Source of the DNA: Faecousia sp.
GTDB lineage: Bacteria > Bacillota > Clostridia > Oscillospirales > Oscillospiraceae
Direction: 5' to 3'
DNA length: 64,000 nt
Assembly (NCBI GenBank): GCA_045532855.1
Contig: JAZSGS010000013.1
Coordinates: 15,480 to 79,479 of the forward strand
Under the pieces are notes generated by a model that saw only the letters and a program-made list of their open reading frames with translations, did not search any database and was not told the DNA's origin. This document shows, one piece after another, positions 32,158 through 60,035 of the stretch. Numbering within the stretch: position 1 is the stretch's first letter; every line of letters starts with the position of its first letter. The position numbers and the translations under genes are program-made.

Positions 32158-32943
32158 ATGAAACTCATCGACATTCATACCCATATTTATCCCACCGCCA
32201 TTGCCCAAAAAGCGGCGGCCAGCATTCGGGATTTTTATGAGCTGGAAACCCGGGAAATGGACGGAACAGCGGCGACATTGCTGGAGCTGGGAACAAAAGC
32301 CGGCGTTGACCGGTTTGTGATCCTGCCGGTGGCAATGCGCCCCGACAGAACCCGGCATATCAACGACTTTATCCTGGAGCAGGTGGCGCAGCAGCCCCGT
32401 TTTATCGGCTTTGGCACGGTCCACGCCGGTATGGAGAACATTACCGACGAGGTGGAGTATATTTTGGCGCAAGGTCTGCGGGGCATTAAGATGCATCCGG
32501 ATTTTCAGACCTTTGGCATTGACGATCCCCGGCTGTTCCCGATGTATGAGGCGGTGTCCGGTAAGATTCCGGTGATGCTGCATATGGGCGACAAGCGGTA
32601 TGACTACTCTCACCCCCAGCGGCTGAAGCGGGTGCTGGAGTTGTTCCCCCGGCTGCAGGCCGTCGCAGCCCATTTCGGCGGCTACAGTATGTATGAAACT
32701 GCCTTTGAACTGCTTAGTAAGACGGACTGCGTGTTTGATGTGTCCAGCTCTCTGATGTTTATGGACGAGGGCGTGGCGGAAAAGTATATCCGCTCTTACG
32801 GCGTGGAGCGGATGGCATTCGGTACGGACTATCCGCTGTGGGATCCCATTGTGGAGACCAAGCGATTCCAGCAACTGAAGCTGACGGACGAAGAATTCGA
32901 CCAGATCGGGCATAAAACTGCGGAGCGGATCTTGAAATTGTAA
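32158..32943 (+). CDS. Amidohydrolase family 2 protein
   Basis: IDIHTH, GIKMHP, AHFGG, FGTDYP. Confidence 0.88.
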   Translation: MKLIDIHTHIYPTAIAQKAAASIRDFYELETREMDGTAATLLELGTKAGVDRFVILPVAMRPDRTRHINDFILEQVAQQPRFIGFGTVHAGMENITDEVEYILAQGLRGIKMHPDFQTFGIDDPRLFPMYEAVSGKIPVMLHMGDKRYDYSHPQRLKRVLELFPRLQAVAAHFGGYSMYETAFELLSKTDCVFDVSSSLMFMDEGVAEKYIRSYGVERMAFGTDYPLWDPIVETKRFQQLKLTDEEFDQIGHKTAERILKL

Positions 32944-32953
32944 ATACGCTAAT

Positions 32954-33065
32954 CTTGGCCCCCTCTTTGAGGGGGCTGTCTTTTTGCTTTGCAAAAAGAC
33001 TGGGGGAGTTAACTCCCTCCGGCTTCGCCGCAGACGAAGCCACCTCCCTCAGCGAGGGAGGCAAG
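32954..33065 (-). repeat. Repeat family A, copy 4
   Basis: CTTGGCCCCCTCTTTGAGGGGGCTGTC...CACCTCCCTCAGCGAGGGAGGCAAG. Confidence 0.9.
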
Positions 33066-33096
33066 AAAAGCTCCCTTCGTGAGAAGGGAGCTTTTT
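33066..33096 (-). terminator. Terminator of the ligase-vor-dehydrogenase operon
   Basis: AAAAGCTCCCTTC-GTGA-GAAGGGAGCTTTT, just past the dehydrogenase stop. Confidence 0.75.
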
Positions 33097-33106
33097 GTCT
33101 TATAAA

Positions 33107-34138
33107 TTAGCCGTAGATCAGGGACTCGGCGTAACGGGTGGCGATGACGCCCTCGGGCTCGCCGGTCTGCTTGGACTCGGACAGGATCCGCTCGATGGAG
33201 TTGTAGATGTTATCTACCTTCTCCAGAACGGCAGCCTCGTTATAAGGACCGTCTACCTCAGCTGCAGCATTGATAACGCCGCCGCCGTTGATAACGAAGT
33301 CGGGAGCGTAGTAGATGCCGCGAGCCTTCAGTGCCAGACCGGAAGCATCGTCCAGGATCTGGTTGTTAGCAGCACCGGCGACAGCCTTACACTTCAGCTG
33401 GGGAATGGTGGTGGGATTCAGGATAGCGCCCATAGCGTTGGGGGAGAAAATGTCGCACTCCTGGGAGAAGATAGCCTCGGTGGGAACGATGGTTGCACCG
33501 AACTCTTCAACAGCGCGATCAGCAGCAGCCTTATTGCTGCGGTTGGCGATGATCAGCTTTGCGCCGTCATTGTGCAGCAGACGGCACAGATCGTAGCCGA
33601 CCTTGCCCAGGCCCTGGACAGCGATGGTCAGACCTTCCAGGGAGTCCCGGCCCAGCGCAACCTTAGCGGTGGCCTTGATGCCCTGCCAGGTGCCGCGAGC
33701 GGTGAAGGGAGAGGGATCGCCGCTGTTCTGAGGCAGACCGCAGATGTAATTGGTCTTGCGCAGCATAACCAGCGCATCGTCGCAGTCGGTGTTCACATCC
33801 TCAGCGGTGATGTAGTCGCCGCCCAGGTTGTTAACAGCCTCGCCGAAGGCCTCGAACATAGCCTCGGTCTTCATAGAGGGGTCAGCGATGATGACGCCCT
33901 TGCCGCCGCCGTGGGGCAGACCGGCAACTGCGTTCTTGTGGGACATACCTCTGGATAGACGCAGAACATCAAACAGCGCGTCGTCAAAGGATGCGTAGGG
34001 GAACAGCCGGCAGCCGCCGATAGCGGGGCCCAGGTTGGTGTTGTGGACAGCGATGATAGCCTTCAGACCGGCCTTTTCATTGTTGACAAACAGCACTTTC
34101 TCGTGGCGGTATTTGCTCATTTCGGTCATTGCATTCAT
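33107..34138 (-). CDS. Leucine/valine dehydrogenase (Glu/Leu/Phe/Val dehydrogenase family)
   Basis: GPAIGGCR, LRLSRGMSHK, GGGKGVI, YITAEDV, SGDPSPFTA, QGLGKVG, GAANNQ, PDFVINGGG. Confidence 0.9.
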   Translation of the reverse strand: MNAMTEMSKYRHEKVLFVNNEKAGLKAIIAVHNTNLGPAIGGCRLFPYASFDDALFDVLRLSRGMSHKNAVAGLPHGGGKGVIIADPSMKTEAMFEAFGEAVNNLGGDYITAEDVNTDCDDALVMLRKTNYICGLPQNSGDPSPFTARGTWQGIKATAKVALGRDSLEGLTIAVQGLGKVGYDLCRLLHNDGAKLIIANRSNKAAADRAVEEFGATIVPTEAIFSQECDIFSPNAMGAILNPTTIPQLKCKAVAGAANNQILDDASGLALKARGIYYAPDFVINGGGVINAAAEVDGPYNEAAVLEKVDNIYNSIERILSESKQTGEPEGVIATRYAESLIYG

Positions 34139-34169
34139 AAAATTTTCCTCCTTAATTTTTGCAGATGGT

Positions 34170-34709
34170 TTACGCGGTGTATTGTTTGCCCAATGTGAGA
34201 GCCTTCATATTCAGCTCCACAAGGGCGGCTTTGGTGGGAGGCACCAGCTTTTCTACTACGGTGTCTGTGCCATCAAAGGAAAGCTCGGGATGATTCTGCA
34301 GCAGATGACCCATAATGATCATATTTGCCAGCGTGGGGATATGCTGCTCTCTTGCCATAGCGGTGGCGGGAATGTAGAACACCTCCACATCGGTACGTTC
34401 TACCTGGACACCGATCAGGGAAGAATCCACATAGATCTGTCCCCCGGGAACGACGGTATCCACATATTTCTGCAGGGACGGCAGATTCATCGCGATCAGC
34501 ACATCGGGGCTGGTTACGATGGGAGAGCCTACGGGCTGCTCGGATATGATCACATTGCAGTTTGCTGTGCCGCCACGCATTTCCGGGCCGTAGGAAGGCA
34601 GCCAGGAAACCTGCAGCTCTTCCATAAGTCCCTTATACGCCAGGAACTTGCCGGCGAAAAGAATGCCCTGTCCGCCGAAGCCGGCGATCAAAATTTGTGT
34701 CGTTTTCAT
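34170..34709 (-). CDS. 2-oxoacid:ferredoxin oxidoreductase gamma subunit
   Basis: [19 protein letters not shown]. Confidence 0.92.
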
Positions 34710-35464
34710 TTGGCATCCTCCTTTGCAGCGGAGCGATCCTTATAAACGCCGATGGGATAGTAGGGCAGCATATCGCTTTCCACCCATTCCAGCGCTTTCT
34801 GCGGTGTCATACCCCAGTTGGTGGGGCAGGCGGAAACCACCTCAACCAAACTGAAGCCCTTACCCTCGATCTGATTGGTGAAAGCCTTCTTGATCGCCTT
34901 CTTGGCGGCGTTGACGTTCTTCACATTGTTAACGGCAACACGGGCCAAATACTCGGGGCCCTCCAAGCTGGACAGCATTTCGCAGACCTTGATGGGCCAG
35001 CCGCAGTGATTGACATCACGGCCGTAGGGGCTGGTCTGGGTAACCTGACCGGGCAGGCTGGTGGGAGCCATCTGACCGCCGGTCATACCGTAAATGGCGT
35101 TGTTGACGAAGATAACGGTGATGTTTTCGTTTCTGGCAGCGGCGTGGACCGTTTCTGCCATACCGATGGAGGCCAGGTCGCCGTCGCCCTGATAGGTAAA
35201 GACCACATTCTCGGGACGGCAACGCTTGATGCCGGTGGCAACTGCAGGTGCGCGACCGTGAGGGGCTTCGATCATATCGCAGGCGAAATAATCGTATGCC
35301 ATAACGGCACAGCCAACGGGAGCGACACCGATAGCCTTGCCCTCGATGCCCAGTTCGTCCATAACCTCAGCCACCAACCGGTGGATGATGCCGTGGGGAC
35401 AGCCGGGACAGTAGTGGAAGGGGAGGTCGGTCAGGGAGTTCGGTTTCTTAAATACAACTGCCAT
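34706..35464 (-). CDS. 2-oxoacid:ferredoxin oxidoreductase beta (TPP-binding) subunit, Vor type
   Basis: [38 protein letters not shown]. Confidence 0.93.
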
Positions 35465-35466
35465 GA

Positions 35467-36528
35467 TCAGAACACTCCTTTCTCAGCATTGCGAATGCTT
35501 TCCAGCACCTCGTCGGGGCTGGGTATCATACCGCCGCAGCGGTTGCACAGCCCCACAGGTCGTTTGCACTGGGTATACAGGCGGACATCCTCGATCATCT
35601 GACCCATACTCAGCTCCACGCTGATGAAACCCTTGACCTTGTCGGCAGCCTTCAGCAGGGCGTCCTTGGGGAAGGGCCACAGGGTAATGGGACGGATCAG
35701 ACCTACCTTAATGCCCTCCTGCCGGGCGGCAACGATGGCATTCTTGGCAACACGGGAAGCGATACCGAAGGCGACGACACAGATCTCGGCGTCCTCCATC
35801 ATATACTCTTCCCACATAGCTTCGGTTTCTTCGATAGCCTTGTACTTTTCGTACCGCTCGAAATTGGTCTTTTCCAGCGCCTCGGGCTTTAAGTACAGGG
35901 AGTTGACGATGTTATGCTTGCGCTCACAGTTAGTGCCGGTCAACGCCCAGGGTTTTTCGTAATTTTCGATCTCGGCATCTTCAAAAGAGATGGGCTCCAT
36001 CATCTGTCCGATGGTGCCGTCTGCCAGGATCATAGAGGTCATCCGGTATTTGTCTGCCAGGTTGAAGCCCTTAATGGTCAGGCTTGCCATTTCCTGTACA
36101 GAAGCAGGGGCAAGGACGATCATTCTGTAGTCGCCGTGTCCGCCGCCCTTGGTGGCCTGGAAATAGTCGGACTGAGGGGGCTGAATACCGCCCAAGCCGG
36201 GACCGCCACGCTGGACATTGACCACCAGCGCAGGTACATCAGAGCCGGCGATGTAGCTCAAGCCCTCAGCCTTCAGGGAGATTCCGGGGCTACTGGAGGA
36301 GGTCATAACACGCATACCGGCAGCGGCTGCGCCGTAGACCATATTGATGGAAGCGACTTCACTTTCTGCCTGCAGGAAAACGCCGCCGATCTTGGGCATT
36401 TTCTTCGCCATATAGGCAGCAATTTCTGTCTGGGGGGTGATGGGGTATCCGAAGTAATGGCGGCAGCCGGCACGGATGGCGGCTTCAGCGATGGCTTCGT
36501 TGCCCTTCATAAGAATTCTCTGCGCCAT
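35467..36528 (-). CDS. vorB: 2-oxoacid:ferredoxin oxidoreductase alpha subunit (3-methyl-2-oxobutanoate dehydrogenase VorB-type)
   Basis: [43 protein letters not shown]. Confidence 0.88.
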
Positions 36529-36538
36529 CTTTGCCTCC

Positions 36539-36745
36539 TTATTTCTCTCCGGTGATGATGCAGCCCGGGCACATAGTGGCGCAGAATGCACAGCCGATAC
36601 ATTTTTCCATATCGGTCATCACGGCAGGTGAATAGCCTTTGTTGTTGATCTGATCCTCGGCAATGACCAGAAGCTTCTTGGGGCAGGCGGATACACACAG
36701 ACCGCAGCCCTTGCAAAGGTCCGTATTGAATGTAACTTTTGCCAT
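36539..36745 (-). CDS. 2x[4Fe-4S] ferredoxin-like delta subunit
   Basis: CKGCGLCVSACP and CIGCAFCATMCP. Confidence 0.92.
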   Translation of the reverse strand: MAKVTFNTDLCKGCGLCVSACPKKLLVIAEDQINNKGYSPAVMTDMEKCIGCAFCATMCPGCIITGEK

Positions 36746-36779
36746 TTGGATTCCTCCTTTTGGTTATGCGATCAGGAGC

Positions 36780-37463
36780 TTACCGCTTCTGGTCGGGTAG
36801 ATCAAAGTATTTCTCCTGCAAATGCAGGGGGAAAACATTGGGGATATGATCGCTGACTTGGGTTGCAAGGTCAGCGCGAACAGTAGTCATATACAAATTC
36901 AGACCGGAAAGTTCTTTTAGCTTTTCTATATAGGGCACGCTGTCCAAAACCGTCTGTACATCGGTTAGCGGACCTAAATGGGAGTTGTTTACGATGTCCG
37001 TAAAGGCAAGACCGCAGGCATTTTCGATCTCCCGCATCACTTCCAACGCATCCTCCGGCGTTTGTGTCAGGGGACGGTAGCAGTTGGCAACGAAGATCAT
37101 TCGATAGTTGCCTTCCTTGCGGATAAAGGGGACGTACCGACCTAAGGCGTATGCGCCCCGGTCATCGCCGCCGATGTCCATCACGCCAAAGCTGCTGCGA
37201 TCCTCCACCAGCCGGTAGGCTTCTGCCGGCAGGGCAGGCAGGTCAACATTGGAGTTGGCAAACTGGGGGGAGATCAGCTCTACGCCGGCATTTTTCAGCT
37301 GAACAGCGCTGTCAGCGGTGCGAAAGTAGGGATTTACGATGTCCAGGTCTGCAATACAGACCTTTTTGCCCTCGCTTGCCAAATGCAGCGCATAATTTAC
37401 GGCAATATTGGTCTTGCCGCTGCCGTAATGGCCGGCAAACAAAGTAAGGCGTTTGTGGTTCAT
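36780..37463 (-). CDS. Uncharacterised P-loop NTPase in the vor operon
   Basis: GHYGSGKTN Walker A, DLDIVNPYFR, DIGGDDRG. Confidence 0.75.
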   Translation of the reverse strand: MNHKRLTLFAGHYGSGKTNIAVNYALHLASEGKKVCIADLDIVNPYFRTADSAVQLKNAGVELISPQFANSNVDLPALPAEAYRLVEDRSSFGVMDIGGDDRGAYALGRYVPFIRKEGNYRMIFVANCYRPLTQTPEDALEVMREIENACGLAFTDIVNNSHLGPLTDVQTVLDSVPYIEKLKELSGLNLYMTTVRADLATQVSDHIPNVFPLHLQEKYFDLPDQKR

Positions 37464-37466
37464 AAA

Positions 37467-39752
37467 TTACAACTGCTTTCTGATGATCTTGCCGCTGATG
37501 GTCTTGGGAAGGGATTCCTTGAATTCCACGATACGGGGGTATTTGTAGGGAGCGGTTCTGCTCTTGACATATTCCTGGATCTCCTTACGCAGCTCGTCGG
37601 TGCCTTCGGTGCCCTTTACCAGCACGATGCTGGCCTTGACCACCTGACCGCGAACCTCGTCGGGAGCGGCGGAAACGCCACATTCCAAAACATAGGGCAG
37701 CTCCATAATCACATTTTCGATCTCGAAAGGTCCGATCCGGTAGCCGGAGGACTTGATCACATCGTCTACACGGCCAACATACCAGAAGAAGCCGTCCTCA
37801 TCCTTCCACGCCAGATCACCGGTGTGGTAGAAGCCGTCCCGCCAGGTTTCTGCGGTGATCTCGTCGTTGCCCTCATAGCAATAGGCAAGACCGCAGGGCA
37901 GCCCCTTGGAAATATCGATACAGATCTCGCCGGTCTCACCGGACTCCACTTCATTGCCGTCGGCATTCAGCAGCTTAACATTATACAGCGGCACGGGCTT
38001 ACCCATAGCGCCGAATTTGTGGCTGTCGCCGGCCAGGTTGCCGATAATGAGGGTGCTTTCGGACTGACCGAAGCCCTCCATGATCTTCAGACCGGTGGAA
38101 AGCTCAAACTGACGGAACACCTCGGGATTCAGCGCTTCGCCGGCGGTGGATGCGTGCTGGATAGAGGAAAGATCATACTTGCTCAGATCCTGCTTGATCA
38201 GCATCCGGTACATAGTCGGCGGTGCGCAGAAGGTGGTGATGTTGTATTTTGCAAACATAGGCAGGATCTTCTCACCATCGAAGCGGTCAAAGTCGTAGAC
38301 GAAGATACCTGCTTCACACAGCCACTGACCGTAAAGCTTGCCCCAGGAGGACTTTGCCCAACCGGTGTCGGAAATGGTCAGGTGCAGACCGTCGGGGTTG
38401 ACACGGTGCCAGTATTTGGCGGTGATGAAATGTCCCAGAGGATACTTGTAGTTATGGGCAGTCAGCTTGGGATAGCCGGAGGTGCCGGAGGTGAAGAACA
38501 TCAGCATAGGATCGTTGCCGCAGGGGGCATCTTCTGCTCTTGCAAAGTGGGAGCTGAAGAGGGCGTATTCTTCGTTAAAGTCGTGCCAGCCTTCCCGGCT
38601 GCCGTTTACCAAGATCTTATGCTTCAGTCCCGGGCACTTTGCAGCGGCCTCGTCCACTGCGTCGGCGACATTGCCGTCGGCAGTGCAGAGGATGGCGCTG
38701 ACATTACCGGCCTGGAAGCGGTAAGTAAAGTCTTTTTCAAGGAGCTGGTTGGTGGCGGGAATTGCCACAGCGCCCAGTTTGTGCAGAGCCAGAATGGCAA
38801 ACCAGAACTGGTAGTGCCGCTTCAGCACCAGCATCACCCGGTCGCCCCGCTTGATGCCCAGGGACTTAAAGTAGTTTGCTGCTCTTGCAGATTCTTTCTT
38901 CATATCCTGGAAGGTGAAGCGCCGCTCGGTCATATCCTCGGAGATGTGGAGCATAGCCAGCTTTTCCGGCTTGCTGCGACCCAGCGCATCCACCACATCG
39001 AAGGCAAAGTTGAACTTATCCTGGTTCTGGAATGCGATCTGCTCCAGCTTGCCGTCCACCACCGTGGGGGTGATGAAATTGCGGTAGACCCGGGGCTTTT
39101 TGTCCGGAGTCAGGCTCTTGCCGGGGGTTGCCACGGCGGCAGCCTGCTCACCGTCCCGGGCTGCAGAATTGCTCAGAACAAAGGCATAGAATGCGCAGTC
39201 CTCGCCATCCACGGCGATCATACCGTGGGGCGTGGCAGAATCGTAGTAAATACAGTCGCCGGGGTGGAGGATCTCGGTCTTGCTGCCGATCTGGATCCGC
39301 ATCGTACCGGAAATGACGATGTCGCACTCCTGACCTTCGTGGGTAACCAGCTCGATGTCCTCGTATTCCGCGCCGTCCCGGTACTTCAGCTCCATATACA
39401 GGGGCAGACCGATACGGTTGCGGAAGCCGGCTGCCAGGTTGTAGCCGATCATATGGTGCGCTTCCTCGATACGCTGACCGTCGCCCTTGCGGGTGAGGGC
39501 ATAGCTGCGCAGCTTGGGGCTGCTGCCCTCCAGCAGGTCGCCCATATCCACGCCCAGACTCAAGGTGCAGCGGTACAGGAAAGCAATGCTTAAGTTGCGG
39601 TTGCCCGCTTCACATTGCAGATATTCTTCTACGGACACGCCGGTACGGGAAGCCATTTCCTCCGCTGTGAAGCCGTTGACTTCACGCAGCTCCTGGATAC
39701 GCTTGGCGACTTCCTGAATCTTAAAGTCCGTGCCGGTAAATTTCTGTTCCAT
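37467..39752 (-). CDS. XRE-HTH/cupin-acyl-CoA synthetase fusion (Val T-box controlled)
   Basis: N-terminal IQELR..G.T.EEMA HTH, THEGQE...PHGM cupin; AMP-binding FTSGTSGYPK, GFGQSE, YHTGD, PKTISGK. Confidence 0.9.
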   Translation of the reverse strand: MEQKFTGTDFKIQEVAKRIQELREVNGFTAEEMASRTGVSVEEYLQCEAGNRNLSIAFLYRCTLSLGVDMGDLLEGSSPKLRSYALTRKGDGQRIEEAHHMIGYNLAAGFRNRIGLPLYMELKYRDGAEYEDIELVTHEGQECDIVISGTMRIQIGSKTEILHPGDCIYYDSATPHGMIAVDGEDCAFYAFVLSNSAARDGEQAAAVATPGKSLTPDKKPRVYRNFITPTVVDGKLEQIAFQNQDKFNFAFDVVDALGRSKPEKLAMLHISEDMTERRFTFQDMKKESARAANYFKSLGIKRGDRVMLVLKRHYQFWFAILALHKLGAVAIPATNQLLEKDFTYRFQAGNVSAILCTADGNVADAVDEAAAKCPGLKHKILVNGSREGWHDFNEEYALFSSHFARAEDAPCGNDPMLMFFTSGTSGYPKLTAHNYKYPLGHFITAKYWHRVNPDGLHLTISDTGWAKSSWGKLYGQWLCEAGIFVYDFDRFDGEKILPMFAKYNITTFCAPPTMYRMLIKQDLSKYDLSSIQHASTAGEALNPEVFRQFELSTGLKIMEGFGQSESTLIIGNLAGDSHKFGAMGKPVPLYNVKLLNADGNEVESGETGEICIDISKGLPCGLAYCYEGNDEITAETWRDGFYHTGDLAWKDEDGFFWYVGRVDDVIKSSGYRIGPFEIENVIMELPYVLECGVSAAPDEVRGQVVKASIVLVKGTEGTDELRKEIQEYVKSRTAPYKYPRIVEFKESLPKTISGKIIRKQL

Positions 39753-39777
39753 TAGTGAAACCTCCAAGATTGAGACA

Positions 39778-40056
39778 AAAAAGCAAAACAGCCCGTCTCA
39801 AAGATAGATTCCTTGAGACGAGCTGCGAATCACAACCCGCGGTACCACTCAAATTGCACCTGCCTTGGGGGCAGATACCACTCATTGGGTGCCAACACAC
39901 CCTAAGCACTGACGCAGCTGACACGGGGAGGCTCTACTTGCGTTCGCGTTCTTCCTCCCAGCTCAGGAGGGACAAGCAATCATTCCCGCCATGGCTTGCA
40001 CCGACCGCCATTTCTCTGCAGGCGCAGGATTTGAAAGCTTTTCTCCATCATAGCCT
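39778..40056 (-). ncRNA. T-box riboswitch, Val (GUC) specifier
   Basis: Minus strand: GCTATGA GA-motif, AGAGA, GGTGCAA, GTC-C-CTCC-T-GAGC (codon 39971-39973), TTGAGTGGTACCGCG, terminator CGTCTCAA...TTGAGACG plus U tract. Confidence 0.9.
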
Positions 40057-40067
40057 TTATGTATGGA

Positions 40068-40096
40068 ATCATACCATTGCTGTCTTAATTTGTCAA
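40068..40096 (-). promoter_or_regulatory. Sigma-A promoter for the Val T-box leader
   Basis: TTGACA-17 bp-TATGAT with extended TG. Confidence 0.75.
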
Positions 40097-40108
40097 TAAA
40101 TTTGTGGA

Positions 40109-42376
40109 TTAAAGTTTGTTACGCTGGATCTTGCCGGAGATGGTCTTGGGCAATTCGTCCCGGAATACCACGATCCGGGGATACTTGTAAGGTGCGGTGT
40201 GCTGTTTGACATAGTTCTGGATCTCTTTTTTCAGCTCCTCTGTGCCTTCCACGCCGGGAACAAGCACGATGCTGGCCTTGACCACCTGACCGCGGACCTC
40301 GTCGGGGGCAGCGGAAACGCCGCACTCCAGAACATAGGGCAGCTCCATAATGGTGGACTCGATCTCGAAGGGTCCGATCCGGTAGCCGGAGGACTTGATA
40401 ACATCGTCAGCACGACCCACATACCAGTAGTAGCCATCCTCGTCTCGCCAGGCAACATCGCCGGTGTGATACATACCGTCGTGCCATACGCTGTCGGTGG
40501 CTTCCTGGTTGCGGTAGTAGCCCAGGAATACACCGCAGGTGGGCTTGGGATCGGTGCGGATGACGATCTCGCCGTTGACACCGTCTTCCACGCTCTTGCC
40601 GTCGGAATCCACGATGTCGATGCCGTAGCCGGGAACAGGTTTGCCCATTGCGCCGGGCTTGATGTTGGCGCCGTACAGGTTGGCGATGCCCAGGGTCATC
40701 TCGGTCTGACCGAAGCCCTCGTGGATGCGAAGACCCGTAGCCTTTTCAAACTGATAGAACACCTCCGGATTCAGCGCCTCGCCGGCGGTGGTGGCATGAT
40801 GGATGGAGGAAAGGTCATACTTGCTCAGATCCTGCTTGATCAGCATCCGGTACATCGTGGGAGGTGCGCAGAAGGTAGTAATATTGTACTTGGCAAACAT
40901 AGGCAGGATCTTTTCTGCATCAAAGCGGTCAAAATCGTAGGTAAAGACCGCGCCCTCGCACAGCCACTGACCGTAGAGCTTACCCCAGAGAGCTTTGCCC
41001 CAGCCGGTTTCAGAAATGGTAAAGTGCAATCCGTCCCGCTCACATAGATGCCAGTATTTGGCGGTAACATAATGACCCAGAGCATACTTGTAGGAATGGG
41101 TAGCCATTTTGGGATAGCCGGTGGTGCCGGAGGTGAACAGCATCAGCATCGGATCGCTGCCGCAGGGAGCGTCCTCGCCACGGGTATAGCGGCGGCTGAA
41201 GAGCTTATATTCTTCGTTATAGTCGTGCCAGCCCTCCCGGCTGCCGCCGACCAGAATTTTGGTCAGATTGATGTTTGCGGTCTTCTCAGCCAGCTCGACC
41301 TGCTCGGCGGTGTTGCCGTCGGCGGTACACAGTACGGCACTGACATCGGCAGCCTGGAAGCGGTAAACAAAGTCGTGCTCCATCAGCTGATTGGTAGCGG
41401 GGATGGCGATAGCGCCCAGCTTGTGCAGACCGAGGATGGCAAACCAGAACTGGTAGTGCCGTTTCAGCACCAGCATGACCCGGTCGCCCCGTTTGATGCC
41501 CAGAGATTTGAAATAGTTTGCACTCTGAGAGGAGGCATCCTTCATATCCTTAAAGGTGAAGCGCCGTTCGGTCATATCGCCCCCAATGTGGACCATAGCC
41601 AGCTTATCCGGCTCTCTTCTTGCGATGGCATCAACGGTGTCGAACGCGAAGTTATAATTTTCTTCATCAGAGAAGGTCATACCCTGGAATACGCCGTTTT
41701 CATCCTCCTGGGCGTTGACAAAACGGTTGCACAGCAGATTCTGTTCCCGCTTGCCCTTTTGGACCTCGCTGATGTACATAGGCTGATCGGTAGCATCAGA
41801 TGCCATGATCATAGACAGGAATACGCAGTCCTCGCCGTCCACAGCGATCATACCGTGGGGGGTGGAGGATCTGTAGAAGATGGAGTCGCCCTCCCGGAGC
41901 ACTTCCTCGTGGTCGCCGATCTTGATGCGCATAGCACCCTTGACCACCAGATCAAATTCCTGACCGGTGTGGGTGGTGGTGTGGATGGGCTTATTCTGCA
42001 GCTCCTCAGAATACTGGTAGGTTACCCAGTAGGGGGTAGCCAGCTTCTTGCGGAACATAGGCGCCATATCCTGAATGGTGATGCCGTCCTCGCTGGCAGT
42101 TACCAGACCTTTGCCCCGGCGGGTAACGGTGTAGCCGCTGAGCTTTGCGCTGCGGCCTTCCAGCAGAACGGTGATCTCAATGCCAAATACCTTGGCACAT
42201 TTATGCAGGAAAGAAAAGGGAAGATCCACGGTGCCGGATTCATACTGGCGGTAAATTTCTTCCGCTACCTCCGTCTGCTCGGCCATTTTCTGTGTGCTGT
42301 AGCCCAGAATTTCCCGCATACCTCTGATACGAGTTGCGATGTCCATTAGTTGGGTAGAGGTATTTGTGTTGCTCAT
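40109..42376 (-). CDS. Second XRE-HTH/cupin-acyl-CoA synthetase fusion (Ile T-box controlled)
   Basis: Paralog of 37467-39752: HTH, THTGQE...PHGM, FTSGTTGYPK, GFGQTE, YHTGD, PKTISGK. Confidence 0.9.
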   Translation of the reverse strand: MSNTNTSTQLMDIATRIRGMREILGYSTQKMAEQTEVAEEIYRQYESGTVDLPFSFLHKCAKVFGIEITVLLEGRSAKLSGYTVTRRGKGLVTASEDGITIQDMAPMFRKKLATPYWVTYQYSEELQNKPIHTTTHTGQEFDLVVKGAMRIKIGDHEEVLREGDSIFYRSSTPHGMIAVDGEDCVFLSMIMASDATDQPMYISEVQKGKREQNLLCNRFVNAQEDENGVFQGMTFSDEENYNFAFDTVDAIARREPDKLAMVHIGGDMTERRFTFKDMKDASSQSANYFKSLGIKRGDRVMLVLKRHYQFWFAILGLHKLGAIAIPATNQLMEHDFVYRFQAADVSAVLCTADGNTAEQVELAEKTANINLTKILVGGSREGWHDYNEEYKLFSRRYTRGEDAPCGSDPMLMLFTSGTTGYPKMATHSYKYALGHYVTAKYWHLCERDGLHFTISETGWGKALWGKLYGQWLCEGAVFTYDFDRFDAEKILPMFAKYNITTFCAPPTMYRMLIKQDLSKYDLSSIHHATTAGEALNPEVFYQFEKATGLRIHEGFGQTEMTLGIANLYGANIKPGAMGKPVPGYGIDIVDSDGKSVEDGVNGEIVIRTDPKPTCGVFLGYYRNQEATDSVWHDGMYHTGDVAWRDEDGYYWYVGRADDVIKSSGYRIGPFEIESTIMELPYVLECGVSAAPDEVRGQVVKASIVLVPGVEGTEELKKEIQNYVKQHTAPYKYPRIVVFRDELPKTISGKIQRNKL

Positions 42377-42407
42377 AGGGGATCTCCTTTCTGAAACAAA
42401 TGAAAAT

Positions 42408-42656
42408 AAAAAACGCCTCAAGCCAAAGCTTGAGACGAGAATAAACCCGCGGTACCACTCAAATTGCGGCTTGCGCCGCCACTCATCAGACTCTAACAAG
42501 TCCTATCCTTTAACGCAGGCATACGGGAGAACTTACTGAAAAACCGTTCAGCTCTCCGGCTCGGAAGGGATTGGTACTTAGATCAGGCACTACCGGCTCA
42601 CACCAATCGCCGGCTCTCTGAAAGATGCTTTGATCTGACCGTCTTCGTCAAAGCTT
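42408..42656 (-). ncRNA. T-box riboswitch, Ile (AUC) specifier
   Basis: Minus strand: GCTTTGA, AGAGA, GGTGTGA, ATC-C-CTTC-C-GAGC (codon 42569-42571), TTGAGTGGTACCGCG, terminator CGTCTCAAGC...GCTTGAGGCG plus U tract. Confidence 0.92.
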
Positions 42657-42671
42657 TTTGCTATTGCACAT

Positions 42672-42700
42672 ACTATAGCATGTCCGCGAGAAAAAGTCAA
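42672..42700 (-). promoter_or_regulatory. Sigma-A promoter for the Ile T-box leader
   Basis: TTGACT-17 bp-TATAGT with extended TG. Confidence 0.7.
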
Positions 42701-42768
42701 ATGTATTTGTGCACAAAACAAAAATATTTTTCGCGCCGTTTTTTGTCTATGTTTTTCATAAAAAAATA

Positions 42769-42797
42769 TTGACAAACGGAAAGGGATATGCTTAAAT
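42769..42797 (+). promoter_or_regulatory. Sigma-A promoter for the Leu T-box leader
   Basis: TTGACA-17 bp-TTAAAT with extended TG. Confidence 0.55.
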
Positions 42798-42818
42798 GAC
42801 TACATTATAATAATAAAA

Positions 42819-43081
42819 GACGCTGAAGGAAAATCTGCCCTTTCGTATACTGCTCCAGAGAGCCGGCGGTTGGTGTGAGCCGGTGCAAAAGGAATTGGCA
42901 GTCTGATTCCCGAGTTGATCTTGTGAACGCCGTTGGCTGGTAATGAGATACGGGCGCTCCCGTTACAGAGCTAGGGCTTGCTGGAGCCCGATGAGTGATT
43001 CTCCCCTTGGGAGAATAAGCAGGGTGGTACCGCGAATTTATCAATTCGTCCCTGAGATCAGATGATCTCAGGGATTTTTTT
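42819..43081 (+). ncRNA. T-box riboswitch, Leu (CUG) specifier
   Basis: GCTGA, AGAGA, GGTGTGA, CTG-A-TTCC-C-GAG (codon 42903-42905), AGGGTGGTACCGCG (43021-43034), terminator TCCCTGAGATC...GATCTCAGGGA plus U tract. Confidence 0.9.
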
Positions 43082-43098
43082 ATGAAGGAGTGCTTATT

Positions 43099-44511
43099 AT
43101 GAGACAGATCCGAATCAGTGATATGACGATGAAGCAGGCAGCAGAAGGCTTCAGCCTGTCTTTTAAGGAAAAGATCGAGCTGGCAAAGCTGTTGGATAAG
43201 TTAGGTGTGACTGTGATCGAGTTGGAGGGCATTGAGAACCCCCGGATCGACGCGCTGCGGATCAAGTCTATTGCGGCAGCCGTAAACGGCAGTGTGGTTG
43301 CTGTTCCGGTGCAGCTGAATGCAGACAGCATTACCCAGACCTGGAACGCGCTGAAAGAGGCGAAAAAGCCCCGTCTGCAGGTCTGCGCGCCTGTCAGCTC
43401 TGTGCAGATGGAGTATCTGTTCCATAAAAAGCCGGATGCTATGCTTGCCGCCATTTCCCAAACGGTGGCGGACTGCCGTAAGGTTTGTGAAAATGTGGAA
43501 TTTATTGCCGACGATGCTACCCGCAGTGATGGCGCATTCTTGAATCAGGCCATCGCCGCTGCTGTGGAAGCCGGCGCCACCACCGTTACCCTGTGCGACA
43601 CCGCCGGCACCATGATGCCCGACGAGTTTGCTGCGTTTGTAGGCCAGGTTTGCAAGGATAATACTTGCCTGGCAAATATCAATGTGGGCGTTGCCTGTGT
43701 CGATAGCCTGGCAATGGCTGATTCCTGCGCCATCGCAGCTGTCCGGCAGGGCGCTGTGGAGGTCAAGGCGGCGGCTTACCCCATCAACACCGCAGCGTTG
43801 GCCAATGTTGCCCGCGTTATCAGCACCCGGGGCGAAAGCTTTGGCGCGACTTGCTCCGTCAATAGCACCCAGCTGAGCCGCACCGTAGAGCAGATCGCCT
43901 GGATGTGCCAGACCGGTCGGAAGAAGACCTCCCCCTTTGATAACGGCGTCCAGGACGAGGACTCCGGCGTGTATTTGACGGTTCACGATGATATTGGCGG
44001 CGTGATCAAGGCTGTGGAGCGTTTGGGTTATGACCTTTCTGAGGACGATGCTCAGAAGGTTTTCGAGGCATTTCAGAGCATCGCTGCCAAGAAGGAACGG
44101 GTGAGCGCCAAGGAGCTGGATGCCATCGTGGCGTCCGCTGCTATGCAGGTGCCCCCTACCTTTGTGCTGAAAACCTATGTGATCACCGCCGGCAACACCG
44201 TTTCTGCCACCGCTCACCTTACATTAAATAAGGATGGCGCGGCATTGGAGGGCGTCAGCATCGGCGACGGTCCTATCGACGCGGCATTTTTGGCCATTGA
44301 GCAGATCACCGGCTGCCATTACGAGCTGGACGATTTCCAGATCCAGGCGGTTACCGAAGGACGGGAGGCTATGGGCCAGACGGTGGTAAAGCTGCGTTCC
44401 GGCGGCAAGGTCTACTCCGGCAGAGGCATCTCCACCGACATTGTGGGCGCAAGTATCCACGCCTATATCAGCGCGCTGAATAAAATCGTCTACGAGGAGG
44501 AAGCGGTATGA
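43099..44511 (+). CDS. LeuA (2-isopropylmalate synthase)-like protein with degenerate active site and intact C-terminal regulatory domain
   Basis: DATRSD, CDTAG, GDGPIDA, AVTEG, GISTDIV..S..AY..ALN are LeuA-like; DTTLRDGEQ and HCHND are absent. Confidence 0.8.
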   Translation: MRQIRISDMTMKQAAEGFSLSFKEKIELAKLLDKLGVTVIELEGIENPRIDALRIKSIAAAVNGSVVAVPVQLNADSITQTWNALKEAKKPRLQVCAPVSSVQMEYLFHKKPDAMLAAISQTVADCRKVCENVEFIADDATRSDGAFLNQAIAAAVEAGATTVTLCDTAGTMMPDEFAAFVGQVCKDNTCLANINVGVACVDSLAMADSCAIAAVRQGAVEVKAAAYPINTAALANVARVISTRGESFGATCSVNSTQLSRTVEQIAWMCQTGRKKTSPFDNGVQDEDSGVYLTVHDDIGGVIKAVERLGYDLSEDDAQKVFEAFQSIAAKKERVSAKELDAIVASAAMQVPPTFVLKTYVITAGNTVSATAHLTLNKDGAALEGVSIGDGPIDAAFLAIEQITGCHYELDDFQIQAVTEGREAMGQTVVKLRSGGKVYSGRGISTDIVGASIHAYISALNKIVYEEEAV

Positions 44512-47021
44512 GACTTTCCTTTTCTACCCGGGGCTGGACAGATCTTTCCTGGGATGAAATGATGCAGACCGCCCTGGAAATGGGCTTTACCGGCATCGAG
44601 GTCTATAATCTGCCCAAATTCGATCCTATGCTGGATCGGAGCGGTCCTTTCCATAAATATCAGGCTGCGGCTACTGTGCGGCAGCTGCGGGAGAAGAAGC
44701 TGCAGATCCCTTGCTTTGACACCTCCTATGACCTTTCTCAGGACGATAGCTGCGCGCCTTACCTGCAGTCCCTGCTGGAGGTGGCCCACAACACCCAAGT
44801 GCCCTATGTGGCGGCTGTTGCGCTGAGCGATAACGAGCCCCAGGTGAATGAGAATCTGCAGAAGCTGCTGCCCCAGGCAGAAAAGCTGGGGGTAACACTG
44901 CTGCTGAAAACCAGCGGTATTTACGCCGATACCGGCAGATTGCGCAATCTTTTGAACAATTTTGCCAGCGACAATTTGGGCGCGCTGTGGGATGTACACC
45001 ACACCTACCGGGATTTCGGCGAAAGCGGCGATACCACCATTAAAAATTTGGGCAGTTATGTCTGCCACGTCCATTTGCGGGATTCTGACGATCAGGGCGC
45101 ATACCAGGTGATCGGCGAGGGAACGATGCCCATTGCCGATGTGATGCGGGCGCTGTCCTCGGTCAATTATGACGGATTCCTCTCTCTAGAGTGGAAGCCG
45201 GATTGGATGGAGGAGCTGCAGGATCGGGACATCATCTTTCCGTATTATGTAAACTATATGAGCCGGTTTGAAAGCCCCAGAAGCCAGAAGAAATCGCTGT
45301 ATTTCAACCACGATGGCTCCGGTCAGTATATCTGGAAAAAGGACGAGCTCATCGACCTGACCTTCTCTCAGGTGCTGGATCGGGTAACGGAGGAGTTCCC
45401 GGATCAGTACGCTTTCAAGTACACCACGCTGGACTATACCCGCACCTATCGGGAGTTTAAGAAGGATGTGGACGATTTTGCCCGGGCGCTGGTGTCTATG
45501 GGCATTAAGGCAGGCAGCAAGGTTGCCATCTGGGCTACCAATGTACCGGCCTGGTATATCACTTTTTGGGCCACCACCAAGATCGGCGCAGTGCTGGTAA
45601 CGGTGAATACCGCCTACAAGATCCACGAGGCGGAGTACCTGCTGCGCCAGTCCGATACCCATACTTTGGTGATGATCGAAAGCTGTCTGGACTCTGATTA
45701 CCGTGGCATTATCAACGAGCTTTGCCCTGAATTGGCAACCACCAAGGCAGGCGAGCCGCTGCACTGCAAGCGGCTGCCCTTCCTGCGCAATGTTATTACC
45801 GTGGGCTTCAAGCAGCCGGGCAGCCTGACCTTCGACGAGGCGATGGCACGCAAGGAGCTGATCAGCTCCGAGCAGGTGGCGAGAATGGCCGCTGCAGTGC
45901 GTCCCAACGACGTTTGCAATATGCAGTACACCTCCGGCACGACCGGTTTCCCGAAAGGTGTTATGTTAACCCACTACAACGTGGTCAACAACGGCAAATG
46001 TATCGGCGACCGAATGGGCTTGTCTACCGCAGACCGTATGATGATCCAGGTGCCGATGTTCCATTGCTTCGGTATGGTGCTGTCTATGACCTCGTCTATG
46101 ACCCACGGCGCAACGCTGTGTCCGCTGCCTTATTTCTCTGCCAAGTCCTCTTTGGCTTGTATCAATCAGGAGCGGATCACCTGCTTCAACGGCGTACCCA
46201 CGATGTTTATCGCTATGTTCAATCATCCGGATTACCGGAAGACGGATTTTTCCTATATGCGCACCGGCATTATGGCGGGCGCAGGCTGTCCTCCGGAGCT
46301 GATGCGCCGGGCTGCGCAGCCGGATGAGATGAATATGACCGGCATCGTCAGCGTTTACGGTCAGACGGAATCTGCCCCCGGTTCGACTATGTCCGCCTGG
46401 ACAGATCCGCTGGATGTGCGCACCGATACTGTCGGTTATGCCTTCCCCCACGTGCAGTGTAAGATCATCGATCCGGAAACCGGTCTTGAGGTTGCCGACG
46501 GCGTGAACGGCGAGTTCTGCTCTCGCGGCTATAACACGATGAAGGGCTACTATAAGATGCCCCAGGCCACCAAGGATACGGTGGATGCAGAGGGTTGGCT
46601 CCACTCCGGCGATCTGGCTTGCCGGGATAGCGCAGGAAACTACCGCATTACCGGACGGCTGAAGGATATGATCATTCGTGGCGGTGAGAACATTTACCCC
46701 AAGGAGATCGAGGAATTCATCTACACCCACCCCCAGACCAAGGATGTTCAGGTCATCGGCGTGCCGGATAAGAAGTACGGCGAGGAGATTATGGCCTGCA
46801 TCGTGCTGAAAGAGCCAGGCAGCGTAACGGTGGAGGAGATGACCGACTACATCAAGGGCAGTATGGCGCGGCATAAGGTGCCGAAGTATATTGAGTTTGT
46901 AGATGCCTTCCCCATGAATGCGGCAGGCAAGGTGCTCAAGTACAAGATGCGCGAGGATGCCGCCAAGCGGCTGGGCTTAGTCGGCGACGGCGCCGACACC
47001 GCCGGCAACCCGGGAAAGTAA
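44508..47021 (+). CDS. Xylose-isomerase-like TIM barrel fused to acyl-CoA synthetase
   Basis: N-terminal GFTGIE, LWDVHH, HVHLRD, GEG, SLEW; C-terminal YTSGTTGFPKG, FHCFG, YGQTE, LHSGD, IIRGGENIYP, GKVLK; ATGA overlap with the upstream gene. Confidence 0.88.
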   Translation: MRLSFSTRGWTDLSWDEMMQTALEMGFTGIEVYNLPKFDPMLDRSGPFHKYQAAATVRQLREKKLQIPCFDTSYDLSQDDSCAPYLQSLLEVAHNTQVPYVAAVALSDNEPQVNENLQKLLPQAEKLGVTLLLKTSGIYADTGRLRNLLNNFASDNLGALWDVHHTYRDFGESGDTTIKNLGSYVCHVHLRDSDDQGAYQVIGEGTMPIADVMRALSSVNYDGFLSLEWKPDWMEELQDRDIIFPYYVNYMSRFESPRSQKKSLYFNHDGSGQYIWKKDELIDLTFSQVLDRVTEEFPDQYAFKYTTLDYTRTYREFKKDVDDFARALVSMGIKAGSKVAIWATNVPAWYITFWATTKIGAVLVTVNTAYKIHEAEYLLRQSDTHTLVMIESCLDSDYRGIINELCPELATTKAGEPLHCKRLPFLRNVITVGFKQPGSLTFDEAMARKELISSEQVARMAAAVRPNDVCNMQYTSGTTGFPKGVMLTHYNVVNNGKCIGDRMGLSTADRMMIQVPMFHCFGMVLSMTSSMTHGATLCPLPYFSAKSSLACINQERITCFNGVPTMFIAMFNHPDYRKTDFSYMRTGIMAGAGCPPELMRRAAQPDEMNMTGIVSVYGQTESAPGSTMSAWTDPLDVRTDTVGYAFPHVQCKIIDPETGLEVADGVNGEFCSRGYNTMKGYYKMPQATKDTVDAEGWLHSGDLACRDSAGNYRITGRLKDMIIRGGENIYPKEIEEFIYTHPQTKDVQVIGVPDKKYGEEIMACIVLKEPGSVTVEEMTDYIKGSMARHKVPKYIEFVDAFPMNAAGKVLKYKMREDAAKRLGLVGDGADTAGNPGK

Positions 47022-47023
47022 AT

Positions 47024-47055
47024 AAAAAAAGGATGCGCCTAGCGCATCCTTTTTT
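47024..47055. terminator. Bidirectional terminator
   Basis: AAAAAAAGGATGCGC-CTA-GCGCATCCTTTTTT. Confidence 0.8.
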
Positions 47056-47171
47056 CTTGCCTCCCTCTTTGAGGGAGGTGGCAAAAATCTTTGATTTTTG
47101 ACGGAGGGAGTTAAACTCCCCCAGTCTTTTTGCGTTGCAAAAAGACAGCCCCCTCAAAGAGGGGGCCGAGG
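47056..47171 (+). repeat. Repeat family A, copy 5
   Basis: CTTGCCTCCCTCTTTGAGGGAGGTGG...GACAGCCCCCTCAAAGAGGGGGCCGAGG. Confidence 0.9.
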
Positions 47172-47185
47172 TGTGTCCTGTGATT

Positions 47186-48403
47186 TTACCGAATTCCGTA
47201 CTTTTCGATGATATAGTCCATATCCTTATCGCCTCTGCCGGAGAGGTTGATGAGGACAGAGCCCTTGCCCAGCTTCTTGGCAAGCTTCATACCGTAGGCG
47301 ACGGCGTGGGCGCTTTCGATGGCGGGGATGATACCCTCCAGACGAGCCAGTTCATAGAAAGCGTCGATGGTCTCGTCGTCGTTGATCACATCATACTTGA
47401 CCCGGCCGCAATCCCGCAGGAATGCGTGCTCCGGACCGGAGGAGGGGTAGTCAAGACCGCTGGCAACGGAGTAAACGGGCGCAGGATCGCCGTTTTCGTC
47501 CTTCAGCATCACGCTGTTAAAGCCGTGCATAACACCCTCGGTGCCGTACTGCAGGCTGGCGGCGTGGTCGCCCAAAGCTGTGCCGCGTCCCAGAGGCTCA
47601 ATGCCGTAAATATCCACAGGATCGTTCAGGAAACCGGAGAAGAAGCCGGCGGCATTGGAGCCACCGCCAACACAGGCCACGATGGCATCCGGCAGATGAC
47701 CGGTCATATCCAGGAATTGTGCCCGAGCCTCTTCGCCCACCACATGCTGGAAGTCCCGAACCATCATGGGGAAGGGGTGAGGGCCGACTACAGATCCGAT
47801 GCAGTAAATGCAGTCCTTATATTCCTTGGCATAGGCGGCGAAGGCGGCATCCACAGCTTCCTTCAGGGTCTGCTGTCCCTCGGTAACCTCTACCACATTG
47901 GCACCCAGGATCTTCATTCGCGCCACATTGGGGGCTTGCTTTTTGATGTCCTCTGCACCCATATAGATATCGCATTCCAGACCGAAATAGGCGGCAGCGG
48001 TTGCCATTGCAACACCGTGCTGACCTGCGCCGGTCTCGGCGATGACCTTCTTTTTACCCATGTATTTCGCCAGCAGAACTTCGCCCATACAGTGATTCAG
48101 CTTGTGGGCGCCGGTATGGTTTAAGTCCTCCCGCTTGACATACAGCTGCACATTGCCCAGCTTGTTGGACAGCCGCTCCAGATGGGATACCGGGGTAGGA
48201 CGGCCCTGGAACTCCTTGCGGATACGGCGCAGCTCGGCGATGAATTTCCGGGATTGAGCGATGGTAAAATATGCCTCGCTGATTTCCGCCATAGCGGCCT
48301 TCAGCTCGTCGCTGACATATACGCCGCCGTAACGGCCGAAATAGCCCTTATCATCGGGATAATGGCGGAAATAGGTTTCAAAATCCACATTGTTCAGAAT
48401 CAT
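47186..48403 (-). CDS. trpB: Tryptophan synthase beta chain (stand-alone)
   Basis: [40 protein letters not shown]. Confidence 0.95.
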
Positions 48404-48423
48404 AATATGTACCTCCTAAAAAT

Positions 48424-48685
48424 GAAAAGCCCTTGACAGAATACTGTCAAGGGCGAATTTATATCCGCGGTGCCACCTTGATTCATAGGAAGATCCTATG
48501 CGCTTGACGGGATACCGATATATCCCCGGCAACTGACGCATGCCCACGCGTTGCAGAATACTCTGTGAAGATTCACATTTGACTGCACCCTCAGCGGCCC
48601 ATTTGACAACTTGTTTCCTGCCTGACTCTCAGCACCACAGACTCTCTGTATGGGCATCATTGCCTTTATCCCCGCCTCAACGGTT
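48424..48685 (-). ncRNA. T-box riboswitch, Trp (UGG) specifier
   Basis: Minus strand: AGAGA, GCTGAGA, TGG-G-CCGC-T-GAGG (codon 48599-48601), AAGGTGGCACCGCG (C suits a G discriminator), terminator GCCCTTGACAG...CTGTCAAGGGC. Confidence 0.92.
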
Positions 48686-48703
48686 TGCTATGAAATTAAA
48701 TGT

Positions 48704-48732
48704 ATTATAGTATACGGACACTTGTTTGTCAA
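48704..48732 (-). promoter_or_regulatory. Sigma-A promoter for the trpB leader
   Basis: TTGACA-17 bp-TATAAT. Confidence 0.85.
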
Positions 48733-48783
48733 GTGCTTACAAAAGAAACATTTTGTGCGTTTTTTACAATGCCGGAGGGGGTT

Positions 48784-48867
48784 ATGAATAGAAAACCATA
48801 AAATATACAAAAAAGATGAATATTTATGAAAATATCTATTGACAACCATAATTAATAGATGTATAAT
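48784..48867 (+). promoter_or_regulatory. argG promoter with possible ARG boxes
   Basis: TTGACA (48839-48844)-17 bp-TATAAT (48862-48867); ATGAATAGAAAACCAT and ATGAATATTTATGAA upstream resemble ArgR boxes. Confidence 0.65.
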
Positions 48868-59982: not shown

Positions 59983-60035
59983 TGGAAGATACCTCCATAT
60001 AAGATTCTTACAGTTCTCTGCGGCAAAGCCACAAA

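Follow-up and report, generated by a model that had tools for sequence, protein, structure and literature searches.

A gene cluster with three T-box leaders in Faecousia sp. as a candidate salvage route from branched short-chain acids to valine, isoleucine, and leucine

Why would a bacterium place acyl-CoA ligases under the control of RNA sensors for uncharged tRNA? The question is raised by a 14-kb gene cluster in Faecousia sp. (Bacillota; Oscillospiraceae), in which three differently coded T-box leaders precede units that carry the AMP-forming acyl-CoA ligases Lig1, Lig2, and Lig3. The cluster also encodes the four subunits of a 2-oxoacid:ferredoxin oxidoreductase (Vor) and a leucine/valine dehydrogenase (LeuDH). 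It is located in a stretch of 64,000 nucleotides (GenBank assembly GCA_045532855.1, contig JAZSGS010000013.1, positions 15,480 to 79,479), hereafter called the window, and coordinates given without a contig name refer to that stretch. T-boxes are textbook regulators of genes for amino acid supply, and they turn on the genes that follow when the cognate tRNA is uncharged. We consider it quite probable that the cluster serves as a starvation-gated salvage route that would convert branched short-chain acids to valine, isoleucine, and leucine.

In this proposed route, uncharged tRNA-Val-GAC, tRNA-Ile-GAU, or tRNA-Leu-CAG would cause transcription to read through at the matching T-box. Lig1, Lig2, and Lig3, whose predicted substrates are isobutyrate, 2-methylbutyrate, and isovalerate, respectively, would then form the corresponding acyl-CoA while ATP is converted to AMP and pyrophosphate. 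Because the ligases are AMP-forming, this reaction would be driven from acid to acyl-CoA. A single Vor complex (VorDBAC) would use CO2 and reduced ferredoxin to carboxylate each acyl-CoA, yielding the 2-oxoacid, from which LeuDH would produce the amino acid with NH4+ and NAD(P)H.

The T-box leaders and the amino acids they specify

All three leaders reported by a first-pass annotation of this DNA were found with the Rfam T-box model RF00230, and covariance-model alignments gave the same specifier codons that it had assigned (valine GUC, isoleucine AUC, and leucine CUG). We took as the specifier the triplet just before the final unpaired base in the specifier loop; these three bases together with the next one read CUG(A) for leucine, AUC(C) for isoleucine, and GUC(C) for valine. 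The Val leader falls below the gathering score of the model (93 bits), yet its match covers model positions 1-219 with an E value of 5.7e-17, and it reaches 84.5 bits with a Stem I covariance model built from the leaders of its own genome. The T-box sequence with UGGN GGUGGUACCGCG is present in all three leaders, each of which is closed by a terminator hairpin and a run of U residues. The two best sigma-70-like sites within positions 32800-47400 sit directly upstream of the Val and Ile leaders, and a promoter-like site can be read ahead of the Leu leader (Table 1). With three promoters, three leaders, and three terminators, every unit is thus equipped with a complete set of control elements of its own.

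Other leaders of the same genome provide controls for the specifier rule. The genome, which is 82% complete, carries 11 T-boxes, whose Stem I regions were aligned and whose downstream genes were identified. Among the leaders of aminoacyl-tRNA synthetase genes, the rule gives AUC for IleRS, GUC for ValRS, UUC for PheS/PheT, ACC for ThrRS, GCC for AlaRS, and UGC for CysRS, and it gives UGG for the TrpB leader, such that all seven control leaders are cognate to the gene downstream. In the Val and Ile ligase leaders, the codon is followed by C instead of the usual purine, and the IleRS leader has the same feature. The IleRS gene (929 aa) is itself in the window (57193-60455, minus strand), with its T-box at 60231-60455 and its AUC specifier followed by C. 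Genes for tRNA-Val(GAC) and tRNA-Leu(CAG) are present in the assembly, and a gene for tRNA-Ile(GAU) was not found in it at this level of completeness. Mapping of one DNA run and two metatranscriptome runs on positions 33000-48800 yielded only short contigs of 90-95% identity from mixed relatives, and the metatranscriptome contigs were uninformative on transcript starts, transcript ends, and induction.

The leaders share Stem I, the specifier loop, UGGUACCGCG, and the terminator with established Bacillota T-boxes (RF00230; for example, the Leu T-box of Bacillus subtilis ilv-leu and those of ileS and valS). The logic is also the same, in that uncharged tRNA calls for the supply of its amino acid, and the AUC and GUC codons of the ligase leaders are those of the IleRS and ValRS leaders in this genome. 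The difference lies in the genes that are regulated. In place of aminoacyl-tRNA synthetases, ilv/leu genes, or transporters, these leaders precede acyl-CoA ligases, a ferredoxin oxidoreductase, and a dehydrogenase.

The specifier assignments are maintained among relatives. We sampled 150 genomes assigned by name to Oscillospiraceae (151 genomes in the counts of biosynthesis genes given below), about 40 of which encode a full-length ligase of the fused type represented by Lig1 and Lig2, with two copies, mostly in tandem, in 25 genomes. Across 20 related loci that were fetched from different genera, the same gene order recurs, in which a catalytically dead LeuA paralogue is followed by Lig3, Lig2 forms a second unit, and Lig1 is followed by a P-loop NTPase and VorDBAC; LeuDH is attached in two of these loci. 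The Stem I model identifies a T-box before nearly every ligase of the related loci. Leaders that precede Lig1 orthologues carry GUC or GUA in 15 of 15 cases, those that precede Lig2 orthologues carry AUC in 19 of 19, and those that precede the dead LeuA carry CUG or CUC in five of five. Thus, the codon varies synonymously and the amino acid is constant, as expected under selection on tRNA identity. In a maximum-likelihood analysis, the tree of 37 ligases separates a Val clade (16 rows) from an Ile clade (21 rows), each with a Shimodaira-Hasegawa-like approximate likelihood ratio (SH-aLRT) value of 100, and the tree needs only one change of specifier label.

The claim that each ligase is located directly behind its own T-box stands for Lig1 and Lig2 but not for Lig3, because the LeuA-like open reading frame at 43099-44511 intervenes. 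The stop codon of this frame overlaps the start codon of Lig3 (ATGA) on the plus strand. The Val unit was described as running on into a P-loop ATPase, four Vor subunits, and a Leu/Val dehydrogenase, and both the gene families and the gaps agree with this description. Lig1 and the P-loop NTPase gene are separated by 3 nt, the latter and vorD by 34 nt, vorD and vorB by 10 nt, and vorB and vorA by 2 nt, after which vorA and vorC overlap by 4 nt and vorC and LeuDH are 31 nt apart. In its description of this cluster, the first-pass annotation made no mention of the dead LeuA (noted separately for the window), of the extra domains fused to the ligases, or of the arrangement by which Vor and LeuDH are placed behind the Val T-box only.

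Table 1. Features of the T-box cluster, grouped by unit, with positions in the window
Feature	Position	Strand	Basis
Leu-unit promoter-like site, TTGACA-17-TTAAAT	42770-42798	+	Read from sequence
Leu T-box leader, specifier CUG	42814..43083	+	RF00230 118.7 bits, match 42814-43056; terminator hairpin 43048-43075 and U run
Dead LeuA paralogue, 470 aa	43099..44511	+	HMGL-like barrel and LeuA_dimer; Pfam, NCBIfam, alignment to 3ewb/3rmj
Lig3, predicted isovalerate-CoA ligase	44508..47021	+	PF01261, PF00501, PF13193
Ile-unit promoter, TTGACT-17-TATAGT	42700-42672	-	Sigma-70-like site scan
Ile T-box leader, specifier AUC	42414..42660	-	RF00230 113.3 bits, match 42428-42660; terminator 42437-42414
Lig2, HTH(XRE) + cupin + AMP-forming ligase, Ile clade; predicted 2-methylbutyrate-CoA ligase	40109..42376	-	
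Val-unit promoter, TTGACA-17-TATGAT	40096-40068	-	Sigma-70-like site scan
Val T-box leader, specifier GUC	39788..40060	-	RF00230 80.2 bits, match 39811-40060; 17-bp terminator 39826-39788
Lig1, HTH(XRE) + cupin + AMP-forming ligase, Val clade; predicted isobutyrate-CoA ligase	37467..39752	-	
SIMIBI-class P-loop NTPase	36780..37463	-	GHYGSGKT, DxGGDDRGA; weak ParA/ApbC matches
VorD, 2x[4Fe-4S] ferredoxin-like delta subunit	36539..36745	-	Fer4 families
VorB, alpha subunit, 2-oxoisovalerate:ferredoxin oxidoreductase	35467..36528	-	NF005507 547 bits, cut-off 399
VorA, thiamine pyrophosphate (TPP)-binding beta subunit	34706..35464	-	PF02775; PorB_KorB subfamily
VorC, gamma subunit	34170..34709	-	PF01558
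Leucine/valine dehydrogenase, last gene of the Val unit	33107..34138	-	ELFV_dehydrog domains PF02812 and PF00208
Terminator-like hairpin at the end of the Val unit	33017-33004	-	Sequence scan

The ligases, their partners, and the predicted substrates

All three ligases match PF00501 and PF13193 (AMP-binding and AMP-binding_C), and all three are fusions. In Lig1 and Lig2, an XRE-type helix-turn-helix (HTH) and a cupin domain precede the AMP-binding region and add about 230 N-terminal residues, and in Lig3 a xylose-isomerase-like TIM barrel (PF01261) is joined to the AMP-binding region. The ligase domains are the best-conserved parts of the fusions, with within-clade identities of 67-83%, and the HTH-cupin part has only a weak match among solved structures, to the uncharacterised HTH_3/cupin regulator 1y9q. 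Lig1 aligns through its ligase domain, end to end, with MacsMa of Methanosarcina acetivorans (PDB 3ETC; E value of 4.8e-183), an enzyme that prefers 2-methylbutyrate (PMC10455477). MacsMa-like enzymes have Gly at the position of the Trp that gates for acetate in Acs, and they rely on an alternate Trp (PMC10455477). Both clades carry Gly at the gating position, within the motif GFGQ[ST]E, and the alternate Trp of MacsMa is also kept in Lig1 and Lig2.

MbcS is the best NCBIfam model for both proteins, with scores of 413-428 bits (428 for Lig2) against a cut-off of 850. This enzyme activates 2-methylbutyrate and isobutyrate, acts poorly on isovalerate, and does not act on acetate (PMC10026030). 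Its poor performance with isovalerate would explain why a ligase of another family is found in the Leu unit. Lig1 and Lig2 differ from MacsMa and MbcS in their additional HTH and cupin domains, in falling below the MbcS cut-off, and in their position behind T-boxes and beside Vor genes. MbcS serves lipid synthesis.

Fixed differences between the Val and Ile clades occur at three positions, two of them in the linker that precedes the cupin domain and one in the ligase domain. The last of these is Ala466 in all Val-clade rows and Gly in all Ile-clade rows (motif SDTGW[A/G]K), and MacsMa has Gly at this position, as does the Ile clade. Thus, the smaller residue pairs with the larger predicted acid, and the position may correspond to a pocket residue of Acs (Val310 of the Salmonella enzyme). 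A different architecture is seen in some relatives (L062:9380-11854, L063:9093-11620, and L064:9236-14704), where the HTH-cupin part has a gene to itself, immediately upstream of a short ligase of about 520 aa. Two of these three split forms follow an Ile AUC T-box.

The Leu unit combines Lig3 with the LeuA-like protein. Lig3 has intact adenylation motifs (YTSGTTGFPKG, GQTE, GRxKD, and the C-terminal Lys motif), and it matches PRK12583 at 669 bits, below the cut-off of that model. An alignment of the LeuA-like protein with the barrels of 3ewb and 3rmj shows KQA at the RDGEQ position and CVD at the HCH position. In all five orthologues that were aligned (four besides that of this genome), RDGEQ has been replaced, as have the metal ligands (one Asp and two His), and the protein scores below the cut-off of every isopropylmalate synthase model in Pfam and NCBIfam. 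Because RDGEQ and HxH have been lost, it is not a working isopropylmalate synthase. In common with LeuA, the barrel and the C-terminal LeuA_dimer regulatory domain (PF08502, 107.9 bits) remain recognisable, and this domain is nearly invariant across the five orthologues. Unlike LeuA, the gene is always coupled to that for Lig3, and most carriers yielded neither LeuB nor LeuCD. Having kept only its leucine-binding-type domain, the dead LeuA is probably a leucine-sensing partner of Lig3 that would add a second layer of control, and the HTH-cupin domains of Lig1 and Lig2 would probably do a similar sensor job. A complex prediction for full-length dead LeuA with residues 1-285 of Lig3 (the TIM barrel) gave a score of 0.09 against a mark of 0.32, which decides neither way.

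The Vor subunits exhibit the Fer4, TPP_enzyme_C, and POR domains in the expected order. As in the corresponding enzymes of anaerobic archaea and Clostridia, there are four subunits in the order delta-alpha-beta-gamma, and the alpha subunit passes the VorB model. The present set differs in the synthase direction that we infer for it and for LeuDH, in the P-loop NTPase gene upstream, and in the co-transcribed acyl-CoA ligase. The best solved relatives of LeuDH are the leucine dehydrogenases 6acf and 1leh, which match over the full length with E values of 1e-104 to 1e-101.

The P-loop NTPase gene precedes vorD in the window and in 15 of the 20 related loci, and in two more it is nearby without an adjacent Vor. 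Its structural model has a mean confidence (pLDDT, predicted local distance difference test) of 84, and the fold resembles those of SRP GTPases and the ATPase-type HypB. A role as a NifH-like, ATP-driven electron donor was considered and rejected on the basis of the generic SIMIBI NTPase fold and of an alignment of 12 orthologues, which contains no conserved Cys. Perhaps the protein takes part in Vor maturation or assembly, although this is a guess.

Weighing amino acid salvage against other roles

The first-pass annotation offered the cluster as an alternative to ilv/leu, and the genome gave no match to IlvB/AHAS, IlvC, IlvD, or the IlvE family, nor was the LeuB model passed or LeuCD matched in this 82% complete assembly. 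One candidate for LeuBCD, an aconitase with an Iso_dh family protein on contig C7, was rejected because the aconitate hydratase model gives 975 bits and the gene is beside a Re-citrate-synthase-like gene and a GntR regulator. The set at C7:19400-24500 (L001:5429-10490) brings together the Re-citrate-synthase-like, GntR regulator, aconitate hydratase, and IDH-like genes, and no other member of the aconitase or Iso_dh families was found in the genome. It is probably the oxidative branch of the tricarboxylic acid cycle to 2-oxoglutarate.

A similar picture emerges among relatives. IlvC is present in one of the 25 two-ligase genomes (G071) versus 81 of the 126 others (82 of all 151). A true-type IlvD is likewise found in one of the 25, with weaker IlvD-family matches in three more, and 94 of the 151 genomes have some IlvD-family match. 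LeuB is found in three of the 25 and in 82 of the 151. Completeness is 93-99% for many of the two-ligase carriers without ilv/leu genes. By contrast, ilvC, ilvD, and leuB do occur in the genomes that have only one ligase, coded for Ile (G018, G028, G034, G063, G075, G087, G116, and G149). Overall, every check open to sequence analysis favoured the salvage interpretation.

The most serious rival is that the ligases supply branched acyl-CoA primers for branched-chain fatty acids, with the T-boxes signalling that branched-chain amino acids are short. MbcS, the best model for Lig1 and Lig2, has exactly that role in Staphylococcus aureus (PMC10026030), and the acyl-CoA intermediate is common to both uses, so that the two could coexist. 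However, Vor and an amino acid dehydrogenase would be needless for primers, and they are co-transcribed with Lig1 behind the Val T-box. Three amino-acid-specific switches on three ligases also fit amino acid supply better. Moreover, most two-ligase genomes lack a match to ilvC or ilvD and so need a source of branched-chain amino acids, and the Phe and Trp modules of this genome, described below, follow amino acid logic. We regard primer supply as unlikely.

It is more doubtful still that the ligases act on other acids or function mainly as regulators, in which case the HTH-cupin fusions would be BirA-like transcription factors that signal through adenylation without net flux. HTH_19 and Cupin_2 are domains typically seen in XRE-type regulators, the relatives noted above encode the HTH-cupin part separately from a short ligase that follows it, and Lig3 has no characterised close relative to indicate its substrate. 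Nevertheless, conservation is highest in the ligase domains, all adenylation motifs examined are kept, and the nearest characterised relative is a genuine 2-methylbutyryl-CoA synthetase; in addition, regulation and catalysis are not mutually exclusive. Least probable of all is a catabolic operon in which LeuDH and Vor oxidise branched-chain amino acids (the oxidative Stickland branch) and the ligases recycle or detoxify the acids, since, even though both enzymes are reversible and run oxidatively in many Clostridia and archaea, T-boxes that turn on at amino acid scarcity are the opposite of a catabolic need, AMP-forming ligases spend ATP, the operon has no phosphotransacylase and kinase or ADP-forming synthetase, and the link to ilv loss would be left unexplained.

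Several observations weigh against amino acid salvage or limit how far it can be taken. At 82% completeness, the absence of ilv/leu genes from this genome is not proven. G071 carries both the cluster and ilv/leu genes. Conversely, G057, a genome of the same genus that is 99% complete, has no match to the fused ligases, ilvC, ilvD, or leuB, and about half of the genomes without IlvC also give no fused-ligase match; therefore, loss of ilv genes does not require the cluster. The relatives, moreover, are non-independent samples in these association counts.

The wiring of the cluster is a further difficulty for the salvage route. Vor and LeuDH are placed behind the Val T-box only, no second Vor was found in the 82% complete assembly, and transcripts from the Ile promoter run into the Val terminator. 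Starvation for isoleucine or leucine alone would therefore need leaky read-through or coincident valine starvation. In other genera, Vor follows an Ile-coded ligase or is transcribed separately, and thus the wiring varies. Finally, G076 and G116 carry cluster genes with no T-box detectable by our Stem I model or by Rfam. In G076 (C76; L049 and L058), the dead LeuA, Lig3, Lig2, Lig1, the P-loop NTPase, VorDBAC, and LeuDH are all on one strand as one operon, with gaps of 3-52 nt between the ligase genes. Because no T-box is detectable, these genes must be under some other control.

Precedents, parallel modules, and cluster borders

The need of rumen and gut bacteria for "isoacids", which they carboxylate into branched-chain amino acids, has been recognised since the 1960s. 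In labelling work of that decade, Allison and co-workers reportedly found that rumen bacteria and methanogens carboxylate isobutyrate, 2-methylbutyrate, and isovalerate to valine, isoleucine, and leucine. The chemistry that we propose, from acid to acyl-CoA to 2-oxoacid to amino acid, is the same. The earlier physiology came without genes for the activation step or its control, whereas here both genes and a tRNA-based control are proposed from sequence. Reductive carboxylation of branched acids is also assumed for Methanobrevibacter ruminantium (PMC2812497). A full-text literature search found no gene assignment for isoacid-activating enzymes or for their control, and no paper on T-box-controlled acyl-CoA ligase/Vor units or on a dead LeuA partner. 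Thus, the chemistry belongs to old physiology and T-box control of amino acid supply genes is familiar, but for the wiring of ligases and Vor to T-boxes we found no paper that sets a precedent.

The testable candidates that the cluster offers are three ligases, each with a substrate predicted from its RNA leader, together with a Vor, a dehydrogenase, and a putative leucine sensor. The cluster also provides a marker by which organisms dependent on cross-fed branched acids can be recognised from their genomes, and it bears on isoacid feed supplements for ruminants, on the modelling of amino acid auxotrophy in gut communities, and on the known range of T-box regulons.

Two other modules of this genome have a comparable design. 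With 140 bits, a Phe leader (specifier UUC) outside the window, on contig C21:36000-46771 (L002, L059), is the strongest T-box in the genome, and it is followed in order by genes for an acyl-CoA ligase, a Na+/solute symporter, IorA, IorB, a PaaK-like ligase, an ACT-pair protein, a class I/II aminotransferase, and AzlC. This module appears to be a phenylacetate-to-phenylalanine counterpart of the branched-chain cluster. An arylacetate/IOR route to aromatic amino acids is known from Methanococcus maripaludis, and the Phe module has the same logic, with a ligase, IorAB, and an aminotransferase behind a Phe T-box; the branched-chain cluster differs from that route in using another oxidoreductase family. 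Within the window, at 47186-48689 (minus strand), a lone trpB (526 bits, above the cut-off) is located behind a T-box at 48446-48689 with a UGG specifier, which looks like a tRNA-Trp-gated salvage of indole to tryptophan. The organism thus appears to use tRNA-gated precursor salvage as a general strategy.

A broader proposal can be built on these modules. Perhaps small-genome Oscillospiraceae run much of their amino acid economy as a tRNA-gated "reverse Stickland" salvage, with branched-chain amino acids made from branched acids, phenylalanine from phenylacetate, and tryptophan from indole. In such a scheme, each entry ligase would have a second sensor (the dead LeuA or an HTH-cupin part), Ala466 versus Gly would set the choice between isobutyrate and 2-methylbutyrate, and the P-loop NTPase would be needed for Vor to act as a synthase. 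Taken together as one joint claim, this is speculative, and we think it has a real but clearly minority chance of being correct.

The borders of the branched-chain cluster are marked by repeated elements. The flanks at 32954-33069 and 47052-47170 are inverted copies of two GC-rich hairpin elements, with complementarity of 93% over 57 nt and 94% over 31 nt. We considered these inverted repeats as the boundary of a mobile cassette and rejected this explanation, given that the hairpin family has about 17-21 copies in the genome. The elements look like members of a repetitive extragenic palindromic (REP)-like or bidirectional-terminator family.

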